Source: Promethearchaeia archaeon (lineage in GTDB: Archaea > Asgardarchaeota > Lokiarchaeia > Sigyniarchaeales > SOKP01). From it: a DNA stretch of 64,000 bases. Within the stretch, counting starts at the first letter, position 1. Each line of letters opens with the position of its first letter. Under the pieces are notes generated by a model. That model searched no databases. It saw only the letters and a list, made by a program, of their open reading frames with translations, and had not been told where the DNA came from. Shown in pieces: positions 5,194 to 62,896 of the stretch. The translations under genes were made by a program, and so were the position numbers. Where the stretch lies: NCBI GenBank assembly GCA_029856155.1, contig JAHQWL010000040.1:64001-128000 (forward strand), in the 5' to 3' direction.

Positions 5194-6765
5194 TTATTCA
5201 TCTTGGATATAAGGTTTTCCAAAAAATAAAAAAATTTCTGCTTTTTTCAGTTCTCTACCTAAATAATTTAAATGAGATATATCTTTAGTTAAGTCATTTT
5301 GAATTATCTTTTTATTTAAAGCTTCAGCATTTTCCCCTATAAAAGTTTGAAGTAAATTGTCATCATAAGAATAGAAATGAACAAAAATTTTTTTAGAATA
5401 GTTATCTGTATAAATTCTAAAATATCCATTAGGATCGGGGATATAATCTTGTACGGTTTTATCTACTAATATCACATTAGCTTGATTTATAGTAGGTAAT
5501 TCTTGACTTGTTTTTCCTTTAGCCTTTAATATTGAGATTCCTTGGTTTATTGGGGGAGTTTTATTATGTTGGGCAATATAATTTAATTTTACACTATCTT
5601 TTAATTCTCTTACCCCTCCCATTAATTTTGCACTATGTTCAACAGTAAAAAGAATTCCCATATCTAATTCAATTGCAATACTAGCTAAAAGTCCATTAAT
5701 TCCGACAGAATCAATATCCATGAGTTCTACTACGTTTGAAATTCCAAAAAACATTGGTAATTCAAAAGGTTTATACTTATTTTCAATAACTTTCTTTTTA
5801 TATAGAAAATAAGCTTCCAAAGAGTTGCAAATTCCTGGACTAATTGGTGTTTCTAATAAAGGATCAGCTATTAATTTCTTGAATCCATTGCTAAATAATA
5901 TCTTTGTTAATTTAAATAAATTTTTAACTCGAGTCTCGGGATCTTTAGGAAAATAGGCTTCCTTAACATTTGTGGGGAGTATAACAATAGGAATGTTTTT
6001 AGGCAGATTTAACATTTCTTCATAATTGCCAAGATCTAAACTTAAAATGAGGTCAATGTTTTCATCTGCAGCAGCATTTATCTCTTCTGGGACCATTGAA
6101 TCGATACTTATCAAAACATTATATTTGGACCTTATTAATTTAATTATCTCTTTGATTCTTTCGGGTTTTGGTTTATTAGATATACATCCAATATCTATAA
6201 TATCCGCTCCAGAATTTATATAATGTTTTGTTTTTTTAAGAATATGCTCATTGTTTTTTTCAGTACAATTGACTATCTCAGCAATTATAGGGGGTGGCAT
6301 ATCCCTTCCAATTATGATATTGGGGGTTTTTTCATTAATGTAAAATGTATGAGAACCAAGTTGATTTTTAGCTAGTTCTAATTGTTCCTTTACAATATCA
6401 GTATATTCGTTTTCTCCTGAAATCTCTAATAATCTATTTGCCGGTATTGTATTAGATAAGTTGAAATTTTCTAAATTTTTTAAAGTAATAGACAAATCAG
6501 AGGCAAATTCTGGTCCCTTTCTAATATTTATAGAAAATTTTTCTTCTAAATTTGTAGAATCCCACTGGATAAAACCAGGTAATAATATCAAATCATAATT
6601 AGAAATTTCTATCTGTTCTAAAATAGTAGTTGTTATAGATTCTGTGAGAAATGCAGAAATAGATATTGGTGCTTTTATAATGTTTATCTTATGCTCTTTT
6701 ACGTGTTCAACTATCTTTTCTATTATGTCATAACTCTGTAGGCCAGTAATTATAAGAATTCTAAT
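5194..6765 (-). CDS. Dihydropteroate synthase-related protein (archaeal, C-terminal DUF4346-like region); probable ATT start
   Basis: Frame extends beyond ORF-track start (6591) to ATT at 6765 (xRILIITG...PISISAFLT...YDLILLPG); GADIIDIG, ISIDS, IADPLL, D.NGYFRI, HLNYLGRELKKAE. Confidence 0.85.
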   Translation of the reverse strand: MRILIITGLQSYDIIEKIVEHVKEHKINIIKAPISISAFLTESITTTILEQIEISNYDLILLPGFIQWDSTNLEEKFSINIRKGPEFASDLSITLKNLENFNLSNTIPANRLLEISGENEYTDIVKEQLELAKNQLGSHTFYINEKTPNIIIGRDMPPPIIAEIVNCTEKNNEHILKKTKHYINSGADIIDIGCISNKPKPERIKEIIKLIRSKYNVLISIDSMVPEEINAAADENIDLILSLDLGNYEEMLNLPKNIPIVILPTNVKEAYFPKDPETRVKNLFKLTKILFSNGFKKLIADPLLETPISPGICNSLEAYFLYKKKVIENKYKPFELPMFFGISNVVELMDIDSVGINGLLASIAIELDMGILFTVEHSAKLMGGVRELKDSVKLNYIAQHNKTPPINQGISILKAKGKTSQELPTINQANVILVDKTVQDYIPDPNGYFRIYTDNYSKKIFVHFYSYDDNLLQTFIGENAEALNKKIIQNDLTKDISHLNYLGRELKKAEIFLFFGKPYIQDE

Positions 6766-16979: not shown

Positions 16980-18392
16980 TTGAGTGATTTAGAAGGTTTA
17001 ACTAGAAGGTTAATGGAAAAGGGTTTTAGAAAGGAAGAAATTATTTTACGGCTTGTTAAGGAATATATGGATTTTAAAGACATTAAACAAGAGTCCGCAA
17101 CTCTTCTTGCTGAAGCGATTTATGAAGAATGTAAAAAGAGTGATATTAGGATTGTTTCAGATCCCTTTATGAGATATTTATTAGATATTAATAAGTCAAA
17201 TGTGACCATTGGAAAACAAGGAGTGGGTTGTAGGGGGTCAGGCGACTTTTTTGTTCATAAGCTCATTGCAGAGCTATCTGAAACAGAGAAGAGAGCATAC
17301 TTATCACCTAGCTCTTTAGATGATGCTGGTGCTGTGAGAATTAGTGATATTGAAGGTTTTAAAGCAGAAGATGATTTAATCATTGTATCTAAAATGGAAG
17401 GAATTCATAGTCGCTTAAGCGACTTTCCATTCTTGTGTGGTTTTCACGTAATTTCATGCAATACATTTGCGTGAAGCGTATCGAGAGCCGCACTACGAGA
17501 TCTCTATGTCAAAGGAGCAAAACCAATTTCCATTATGGTTGATGTTCATTTAGGAGATGATGCTGATGTTGGTAAACTCTTAGATTTTATGGCAGGAATT
17601 TCCACAATTGCAGAACTTACTGATGTACCTATAACGGCAGGCTCAACTTTAAGAATTGGAGGTGATATGGTTATTGGAAATAGACTTGTAGGAGGGATTG
17701 GGGCCGTTGGTATTGCTGAGGGTAAACTATTTGCTCGAAGGAATATAAAAAAAGGAGATAAAATACTTATGACTGAAGGTGCAGGAGGTGGAACAATCAC
17801 AACCACTGCAATTTATTCAGGAAACCATCATGTTGTTAAAGAAACGTTGAATATTAAATTTCTTGAAGCTTGCAAAGTAATCTTAAATTCAAATTATATA
17901 AATGAAATTCATGCAATGTGCGATGTGACGAACGGAGGGCTCAGAGGAGATCTCTATGAGATTAATTATGAAGCTAAATGTGGAGTAACAATTTATGAAC
18001 AAGAAGTAAGAAAACTTGTAAATCCGATTGTTCTTGAATTACTTGAAAAAGTATCGGTTGATTATTTAGGGGTTTCTTTAGACGCACTGCTAATTTATTG
18101 TTCTGAGGATGTTTCCAATAAAATAATTTCAGATTTAAGAGAAAATGGTATAAAATGTTCTGAAATTGGGTATGTTGATGATTCGAACCAAATAAAAATG
18201 ATTTTTGCGAAAGATAAACAAGAAAATATTTTGCCTCGATTTCGGGAATCAGCTTACACCAAAATAAAACAAGAAATAGGAGAACAAGCACCAGAATCTA
18301 AAGAAGAAATGGAAAATGATATACAAGTGACTGCTTCAAATGCGATAAAGAAACGAAATAAGATAATAAAATATATAAAAAGTCAAAACTAA
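16980..18392 (+). CDS. AIR synthase-related (PurM/HypE/SelD-fold) protein, two exons 16980-17451 and 17482-18392, 460 aa after splicing
   Basis: GVGCRGSGDFFVH, LDDAG, EGIHSRLSDFPFLCGFHV|TRAALRDL, DVHLGDDADVGK, GSTLRIGGDMVIG, DVTNGGLRGD; both halves in the same frame and joined by removing the BHB intron. Confidence 0.9.
17452..17481 (+). other. 30-nt bulge-helix-bulge intron in mRNA
   Basis: Outer helix 17435-17445/17483-17493, central ACGU/GCGU, bulges AAU and AUC, inner 9-bp stem with 5-nt loop; contains the in-frame UGA. Confidence 0.9.
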
Positions 18393-62107: not shown

Positions 62108-62638
62108 ATGCTTAAAGATTCCATTGCTCTTATTGGTTTTATGGCTACTGGAAAAACAACCGTAGGCAAAGCGTTAACTAAATATCTTGGTGATGATTAT
62201 CAATTTATTGAAACAGATCAGCTTATAATTCAAAAAATTGGTAAAACAATTCCACAAATATTTGATGAAGATGGAGAAAGCAAATTTAGAGAATATGAAA
62301 GTTCTGTGTGTGAGAAAGTTTCTGAATTACACAAAGTAGTGATTTCATGTGGGGGTGGCGTAGTTTTGAATAAGAGTAATATTGACAATTTAAAGAAAAA
62401 CAGTTATATTGTCTTATTAAAAGCTAATTTAGAGGAAATTTATAAGAGATCAAAAAAAAACGGAGTAGAAATAAGGCCAATCATTAATAAAGAAGATTTT
62501 AAAAGAGAAATAAAAAAAATTCAAAATATTCGAAAATCCAATTATGAAGAAGCGGCAGAAATTGTTATTGATACAACTAAAAAAAAAGTGAAGCAAATTG
62601 TAAGAGAGATTGTTATAAAAACCCACTTAAAAACCTAA
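62108..62638 (+). CDS. aroK: Shikimate kinase, bacterial AroK type
   Basis: LIGFMATGKTTVG, D..I, IF..DGE..FR..E, VISCGGG, RP. Confidence 0.92.
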   Translation: MLKDSIALIGFMATGKTTVGKALTKYLGDDYQFIETDQLIIQKIGKTIPQIFDEDGESKFREYESSVCEKVSELHKVVISCGGGVVLNKSNIDNLKKNSYIVLLKANLEEIYKRSKKNGVEIRPIINKEDFKREIKKIQNIRKSNYEEAAEIVIDTTKKKVKQIVREIVIKTHLKT

Positions 62639-62696
62639 ATTTATATAAATATAATCTACAAATTATGTAAAATAATTTAAATAGAGTTAGGCTAAT

Positions 62697-62896
62697 ATGG
62701 CTGATTATAAAAGAGTAAAATGTCCTAAATGCGGAAATGATAATCCACGGATGCTTCATGAAGAACCGGATAAGAGTATTGTACTTTACTATAGTATAAG
62801 TATCGCTTTTTCAGCATACTGCTAACGCAGGGTACTCCGGTTTATGCAAAAAACATGAAGTGTGGAGGATGCGGAAATCTTTTTAAAAAGGAGTAA
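62697..62896 (+). CDS. Intron-split 56-aa zinc-ribbon protein (exons 62697-62797 and 62827-62896)
   Basis: Spliced product MADYKRVKCPKCGNDNPRMLHEEPDKSIVLYYSMQGTPVYAKNMKCGGCGNLFKKE; the two CxxCG knuckles are in different frames in the DNA. Confidence 0.85.
62798..62826 (+). other. 29-nt bulge-helix-bulge (relaxed outer helix) intron in mRNA
   Basis: Central UAGU/GCUA, bulges AUA and ACG, inner hairpin AGUAU-C-GCU/AGC-AUACU, exon pairings GUACUUU/AGGGUAC and AACCGGA/UCCGGUU. Confidence 0.85.

Follow-up and report, generated by a model that had tools for sequence, protein, structure and literature searches.

The zinc-ribbon locus and its two reading frames

The window (the whole stretch of 64,000 nucleotides that was analysed, positions 64,001 to 128,000 of contig JAHQWL010000040.1 of a Promethearchaeia archaeon, assembly GCA_029856155.1) encodes near its end an AroK-type shikimate kinase (P-loop; 62108-62638, + strand) and, immediately downstream of it, a gene for a small zinc-ribbon protein. 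This pair of kinase and zinc ribbon is kept throughout the genus and extends to neighbouring genera; a gene for a flavin reductase lies farther upstream. The zinc-ribbon gene is distributed over two reading frames, one of which runs from MADYKRVKCPKCG to VLYYSISIAFSAYC before it is closed by the TAA at 62823-62825, while the other reads QGTPVY...CGGCG...KKE and ends with its stop codon at 62896. The parts of the gene are as follows:

62697 (ATG) to 62823-62825 (TAA), + strand: open reading frame of 42 amino acids in the list of open reading frames, with the knuckle CPKCG
62697-62797, + strand: exon 1, encoding Met1 to Ser33 and the AU of the Met34 codon, with the first zinc knuckle, CPKCG
62798-62826, + strand: predicted intron of 29 nucleotides, containing the in-frame TAA at 62823-62825 and putatively removed at the RNA level
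62827-62896, + strand: exon 2, consisting of the G of the Met34 codon, then QGTPVYAKNMKCGGCGNLFKKE and the TAA at 62894-62896, with the second zinc knuckle

An earlier note on this DNA had described a CPKCG frame that stops after 42 amino acids and a second frame downstream, and all of its coordinates and strings for them are present in the sequence. Its further claim, that removal of 29 nucleotides (62798-62826) unites both knuckles in a protein of 56 amino acids with four cysteines, is exactly what deletion of this segment yields. The predicted exon joint reads TATAGTAT on the side of exon 1 and GCAGGGTAC on the side of exon 2, and the tryptic peptide predicted to span the spliced joint is SIVLYYSMQGTPVYAK. 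The same note had held that gene callers miss the gene; it is not wholly missed, but is called only as a truncated hypothetical protein of 42 amino acids. Upstream of the ATG by 8 to 14 nucleotides, the heptamer AGAGTTA (62683-62689, + strand) is invariant in six aligned sequences that represent three distinct alleles, and the non-coding bases around it vary among the same six sequences; it is a possible signal for translation or transcription.

The spliced product, and only the spliced product, has the layout of a generic C4 zinc ribbon, with two CxxC knuckles and a beta hairpin between them. In an AlphaFold2 model of the orthologue P0001 (pLDDT 84.9), strands occupy residues 20-32 and 38-46 with a knuckle at each end, and the joint SMQG falls in the turn between the strands. 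No family of Pfam or NCBIfam reaches its cut-off for the spliced protein, and a Foldseek search of the PDB returned no significant match, its hits being generic zinc ribbons at E values above 0.2. A profile search places the protein in a narrow family, of which 13 representatives have an E value no higher than 1e-10. The label "Ribosomal protein S27ae" that is attached to some orthologues was rejected, the scores being 24.8 bits against a cut-off of 54 for NF001669 and 14 against 22.3 for PF01599.

Uninterrupted orthologues and the boundaries of the insert

A protein search with the 56-residue spliced product found 43 relatives, about 38 of which are uninterrupted proteins of 55-68 amino acids from Lokiarchaeota- and Promethearchaeota-labelled assemblies and from metagenomes, 61-81% identical to the query with 93-100% of it covered. 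Exon 1 aligns with residues 1-33 of the uninterrupted orthologues, all of which (about 38) show VLYYSMQGTPVY (YYSMQGTPVY) exactly over the predicted joint of AU and G, and S33, M34, Q35 and G36 are invariant in an alignment of 36 sequences. Three of the 43 relatives are stubs of 42 amino acids, the window's own among them, the identical truncated call having been made in other genomes. The earlier note had singled out orthologues longer by about 10 residues at this site as the sign of a simple frameshifted pseudogene; the orthologues found are uninterrupted and have no extra residues there.

By DNA search, the zinc-ribbon locus is present in 76 of the 154 genomes of the order. Within the genus, at least 34 species-level genomes match without gaps through the insert, at 77-93% DNA identity to the window, and the insert is 29 nucleotides long in every intron-bearing allele. 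Assembly error as a source of the insert is excluded, since more than 34 independent assemblies contain it. Nine species within the genus (G061, G063, G084, G075, G064, G081, G100, G074, G058) are intronless, as are species of other genera. The intronless alleles of the genus read AGTAT followed directly by GCA(A/G)GG, with exactly 62798-62826 absent at the DNA level. Because the intronless DNA of the same genus has this form, the boundaries of the insert are unambiguous, and they are base for base equal to the cuts predicted by the RNA structure rule. Intronless orthologues, for which the earlier note had proposed a search, were thus found, and they include alleles of the same genus without precisely this segment.

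An exact look-up of the spliced 56-residue products of three alleles in a collection of 15 billion proteins gave no match. A degenerate junction pattern run over metagenome contigs found nine loci, all of them intronless alleles of other lineages and none more than 87% identical to an intron-bearing allele. Intron state is clustered on a tree of the C-terminus of the neighbouring aroK (3 changes, versus 11.5 when shuffled), a tree with too poor a resolution to tell one gain with losses from several gains. One metagenome contig (Ga0180432_10003759) carries two intronless zinc-ribbon paralogues about 370 nucleotides apart (L067:5544-5575 and 5916-5947); the family can therefore be tandemly duplicated in other lineages.

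Selection on both exons

The spliced reading is intact, with 56 amino acids, in every intron-bearing allele except the alleles with a further insert. Selection was measured on 30 distinct intron-bearing alleles, with the following results:

exon 1, codon positions 1 and 2: mean column entropy about 0.2; pN/pS of exon 1, 0.142
exon 1, codon position 3: mean column entropy 0.79
insert: mean column entropy 0.52; pN/pS not applicable
exon 2, codon positions 1 and 2: mean column entropy about 0.2; pN/pS of exon 2, 0.140
exon 2, codon position 3: mean column entropy 1.0
flanks, 20 nucleotides per side: mean column entropy about 1.3; pN/pS not applicable

For exon 2, the spliced frame is the only one that shows variability at third positions and a pN/pS of 0.14. 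By these measures of sequence variation, purifying selection acts equally strongly on the two exons when they are read in the spliced frame.

A conserved RNA fold around the insert

The predicted fold of the precursor consists of three helices, a bulge and a loop, listed here in order along the RNA:

62781-62787, + strand: GUACUUU, 5' strand of the exon-exon outer helix, pairing with AGGGUAC at 62829-62835
62792-62795, + strand: UAGU, 5' strand (exon) of the central helix of 4 bp, pairing with GCUA at 62821-62824
62796-62798, + strand: AUA, the 5' bulge of 3 nucleotides, unpaired in single-sequence and alignment folds, with a predicted cut after U62797
62799-62820, + strand: intron hairpin (inner helix h'), with 5 bp, a one-base bulge, 3 bp and a loop of 5 nucleotides
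62821-62824, + strand: GCUA, 3' strand (intron) of the central helix, pairing with UAGU at 62792-62795
62825-62828, + strand: ACGC, the 3' splice-site loop, part of an internal loop, with a predicted cut after C62826
62829-62835, + strand: AGGGUAC, 3' strand of the exon-exon outer helix, pairing with GUACUUU at 62781-62787

The minimum-energy fold of the 61 nucleotides 62780-62840 reproduces the full helix-bulge-hairpin architecture with a z-score of -1.37, and a fold of 91 nucleotides differs from it in part, the z-scores across both folds being -1.37 and -2.33; the folding energy of one sequence is not exceptional, and a single sequence does not prove the structure. Covariation was counted over the 19 pairs of the three inner helices in an alignment of 31 alleles. 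In this alignment of distinct alleles 93.9% of cells hold standard pairs, a share that drops to 23-52% once partners are displaced by 1-3 columns; 9 of the 19 pairs show change on both sides, and the observed pairing or covariation was reached by 0 of 500 shuffles. In the hairpin (62799-62820), seven of eight pairs are compensated, for example by replacement of A-U with G-C at 62799/62820 and of U-A with A-U at 62803/62816. The central helix is 99.2% paired across the 31 alleles, with U-A, U-G or C-G at 62792/62824, and the exon-exon outer helix is 94.9% paired, with covariation between A-U and G-C at 62783/62833, both of which are synonymous third positions. The A and U of the AUA bulge are invariant across alleles. 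RNAalifold, to which the structure was not supplied, recovers the central helix, the bulge of 3 nucleotides, the hairpin and the outer helix. Conservation over the 31 alleles shows that the fold is more than chance, and the pattern of substitution indicates that it is maintained by compensatory change. Searches of the locus with Rfam families and for tRNA (ARAGORN) gave no match.

Most of the fold had been anticipated: the UAGU/GCUA central helix, the AUA bulge, the inner hairpin and the GUACUUU/AGGGUAC helix of the earlier note are all recovered by folding and conserved. A second exon helix that it had proposed, AACCGGA/UCCGGUU, is unconserved, with 73% pairing and a central G-C pair that 22 of the 31 alleles cannot form, and the bases ACG (62825-62827), which it had drawn as a bulge, lie instead within a 4x4 internal loop or in weak consensus pairs.

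The 5' half of the motif is canonical by the strict hBHBh' definition, with a helix of 4 bp, the bulge AUA of 3 nucleotides and the intron helix h'. On the 3' side, four bases per strand separate the central helix from the 7-bp exon helix (the 4x4 internal loop), and in the RNAalifold consensus weak U-A and C-G pairs form there in most alleles beside a 1x1 mismatch. In the canonical register at the 3' site the first pair is A-C, followed by only 2 bp, in agreement with the earlier note, which had called the motif relaxed and BHL-like on account of an A-C pair next to the 3' bulge; the three-nucleotide bulge that the strict definition places directly before exon helix h is absent. Each strand of the central helix is followed on its 3' side by unpaired bases, and in both cases the predicted cut comes after the second of them; the two positions equal the boundaries given by the intronless alleles. 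This is the relaxed BHB geometry (HBh', or bulge-helix-loop) known from cbf5 and from crenarchaeal tRNAs, in which one side has the canonical bulge and helix and the other cut lies in a symmetric loop. As judged from predicted pairing, the motif is a relaxed helix-bulge-helix or bulge-helix-loop with the symmetric cut geometry expected of the splicing endonuclease EndA. The strict definition does not hold on the 3' side, and cleavage there would depend on the assumed broad specificity of this EndA.

Splicing enzymes and proposed mechanism

Asgard EndA has been described as an (alpha-beta)2 enzyme with a broad-specificity L1 loop (PMC5829648), and the cbf5 pre-mRNA introns of Crenarchaeota, which often have relaxed motifs, are cut by hetero-oligomeric EndA (PMC2738675). 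The genome that contains the window carries two genes of PF01974 (EndA), at L056:1177-1773 and L057:1219-1827. The best solved relative of the first paralogue (198 aa) is the catalytic alpha subunit of A. pernix (3p1z_B, E 1e-34), and in alignment this paralogue keeps the residues Tyr/His/Lys and a stretch GxPLxxxKPR that matches the crenarchaeal loop. The second paralogue (202 aa) aligns best to the EndA of M. jannaschii and has Ser at the position of the catalytic His; it would be the structural subunit. RtcB is also encoded in the genome (570 bits), and the host of this relaxed motif has, with subunit roles read from alignments, both a predicted broad-specificity EndA and an RNA ligase.

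In the proposed pathway, the exon sequence UAGU of the pre-mRNA would pair with GCUA of the intron to form the 4-bp central helix, flanked on one side by the AUA bulge and the intron hairpin and on the other by the internal loop and the 7-bp exon-exon helix. The heteromeric EndA would cut after U62797 and after C62826, and RtcB would ligate the exons to create the codon of Met34 from AU and G. Joining of the exons would shift the reading frame such that the second CxxC knuckle is translated. On the comparative evidence, 62697-62896 is very probably one live C4 zinc-ribbon gene of 56 codons with a relaxed BHB-class intron of 29 nucleotides that is excised at exactly these bonds by splicing of the EndA type; from the same evidence we infer cleavage and ligation, with EndA and RtcB as their agents.

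Alternative explanations of the split gene

The locus might instead be a pseudogene in decay, left behind when an insertion of 29 nucleotides inactivated a zinc-ribbon gene, as could be supposed from an unspliced frame that ends after 42 amino acids and from annotation pipelines that call only a 42-residue stub. Purifying selection on exon 2 equals that on exon 1 in the 30 distinct alleles, the length of the insert is invariant, no allele has further damage to the frame (additional intron-like inserts aside), and the structure of the insert is kept by compensatory changes. A pseudogene is excluded because the region past a true frameshift would lose such constraint; this reading has next to no probability left, and is effectively refuted by the intact alleles, the selection and the covariation taken together. 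Only slightly more credible, and still very improbable, is a programmed -1/+2 ribosomal frameshift within the insert, which would produce a protein of about 66 amino acids with 10 extra residues in the turn of the hairpin. Every allele does have some stretch in which both frames are open; however, these stretches do not overlap among alleles (for example 62774-62802 in L031, 62810-62811 in L010, 62819-62823 in L020), so that no conserved site of shifting is possible. A slippery heptamer is conserved nowhere, substitutions in the insert track base-pairing rather than codons, and no orthologue has extra residues at the site.

The alternative with the most in its favour, although it too is improbable, accepts that the 29 nucleotides are precisely removed or skipped and dispenses with EndA, assigning the task either to another activity at the RNA level or to ribosomal bypassing (hopping) over the hairpin, of the kind known from gene 60 of phage T4. 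It would account for a 3' site that is non-canonical and for the position of a stable hairpin and a stop codon downstream of the region where a ribosome would take off. Bypassing requires matched take-off and landing codons, however, and none flank the gap; the codon of Met34 arises only by physical joining of AU and G, both halves of which are invariant in all alleles; and the conserved element is a geometry of a 4-bp helix and a 3-nucleotide bulge, which has no role in hopping. Against removal by any other activity stands the exact match of the cut sites to the EndA rule. Excision by EndA-type splicing is the reading preferred here.

A resemblance to spliceosomal introns was examined separately. 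Most alleles show AG/GUAAAG...CAG/G at 62800-62830 (+ strand), like the spliceosomal signals of yeast, with GU at 62800-62801, AG at 62829-62830 and a branch-like box UGCUAAC ahead of the CAG. Removal of the corresponding 31 nucleotides (62800-62830) fails to restore the orthologous frame, and the resemblance of GU...AG and UGCUAAC is treated as a coincidence of sequence.

Further inserts and possible copying of the intron

A second insert of 30 nucleotides in the window has the strict hBHBh' shape and splits a gene of the AIR-synthase family:

17452-17481, + strand: insert of 30 nucleotides inside the N-terminal domain of the AIR-synthase-family gene, with central helix ACGU/GCGU, bulges AAU and AUC, a 9-bp hairpin and the 7-bp exon helix GGUUUUC/GAGAGCC

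This insert is found in about 10 genomes of the genus, many others having an exact gap of 30 nucleotides, and it is absent from G056, the closest relative of the window at the zinc-ribbon locus. Polymorphism of presence and absence within the genus is common to it and the zinc-ribbon intron, and this parallel counts in favour of splicing of the latter.

The zinc-ribbon gene itself contains further inserts in some species. One of them lies in G073, 17 nucleotides downstream of the first intron:

L048:377-407, - strand: second insert of 31 nucleotides in the zinc-ribbon gene of G073

It follows a second native CAGUAU, within the codons for PVY, and is homologous to the first intron, which it matches at 24 of 29 bases and with which it shares the GCUG end and the AUA bulge; the alignment score is 16, versus a maximum of 6 in 5000 shuffles. 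It looks like a copy of the intron that moved to a site able to form the same central helix. No further copies of the intron were found in the G073 genome beyond the zinc-ribbon locus, and a blastn-short search found no copies of the zinc-ribbon intron elsewhere in its own genome. Inserts of about 30 nucleotides (in frame and with a TAA) in G090 (L029) and of about 32 nucleotides in G079 (L044) occupy a different position, between the codons for PVY(A)K and KCG, and are unrelated to the first intron, which G079 does not have. Three database proteins, P0037 with 12 extra residues and P0040 and P0041, which are truncated, suggest inserts at the PVY/KCG site in other lineages as well.

In a motif scan of the 4.1-Mb genome, the frequency of motifs is no higher than in the reversed genome. 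A filter for rescue of open reading frames, with the 3' cut shifted by -6 to +6 nucleotides, gave, for strict motifs, an excess that was 3-periodic but only weak (about 39 versus 23) and, for relaxed motifs, no excess, even with start codons excluded. A broader reading, possible and on balance rather doubtful, is that the zinc-ribbon intron is one visible member of a population of mini-introns that is active in the protein genes of this Asgard genus, depends on EndA and can copy itself to new sites that mimic the exon half of the motif; the reasons for entertaining it are the paralogous copy in G073, the inserts of G090 and G079 and the polymorphic insert at 17452-17481. If it were true, gain of mRNA introns via the tRNA-splicing machinery, possibly by reverse splicing, would be ongoing in relatives of the ancestor of eukaryotes.

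Comparison with known systems

Endonuclease-spliced introns in archaeal protein genes are rare, the standard case being cbf5 of Crenarchaeota, and to our knowledge splicing of archaeal protein genes by the tRNA enzyme is documented essentially only in cbf5. The crenarchaeal cbf5 intron is reportedly treated by Watanabe (2002) and Yoshinari (2006), and non-canonical archaeal tRNA introns by Marck and Grosjean (2003). A literature search, with most subscription journals outside its scope, found no report of endonuclease-type introns in Asgard protein genes; it yielded the cbf5 precedent and Asgard tRNA introns. The zinc-ribbon gene offers a clean comparative case, with exact boundaries, compensation in more than 30 alleles, equal selection on both exons and, at a site that resembles the first, a paralogous copy. 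Asgard EndA probably accepts relaxed-motif mRNAs among its substrates; gene callers truncate or miss such split genes in Asgard genomes; and how introns are gained can now be tested directly in the prokaryotes closest to eukaryotes.

Unconventional splicing of the HAC1 and XBP1 mRNAs, in which IRE1 acts together with tRNA ligase or RtcB and the XBP1 intron is 26 nucleotides long, resembles the zinc-ribbon case in that a very short intron is excised by a protein enzyme rather than a spliceosome, with a shift of reading frame and ligation of the RtcB type. It differs in that IRE1 recognises two stem-loops, whereas EndA would act on a BHB, and in that XBP1 is a regulated stress switch.

Splicing of the cbf5 pre-mRNA intron of Crenarchaeota has been demonstrated on RNA, and this intron, like that of the zinc-ribbon gene, is present or absent among related species and restores the reading frame by its removal (Yokobori 2009, PMC2738675). 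The two differ in phylum (Asgard here) in gene (a zinc ribbon of 56 amino acids here) and in the kind of evidence, which is RNA for cbf5 and comparative for the zinc ribbon. One species, moreover, carries a paralogue of the zinc-ribbon intron elsewhere in the zinc-ribbon gene. The non-canonical tRNA introns of Asgard archaea and Thermoproteales share with the zinc-ribbon intron the presumed enzyme, the helix-bulge-helix logic, a similar size, frequently relaxed motifs and repeated gains within lineages (PMC11291895; bioRxiv 10.64898/2026.10.13.758758). In contrast to these tRNA introns, the outer helix of the zinc-ribbon intron covaries through synonymous sites. The assignment of the zinc-ribbon intron to the archaeal class of BHB mRNA introns, represented here in an Asgard lineage, is well supported by the comparison of alleles.
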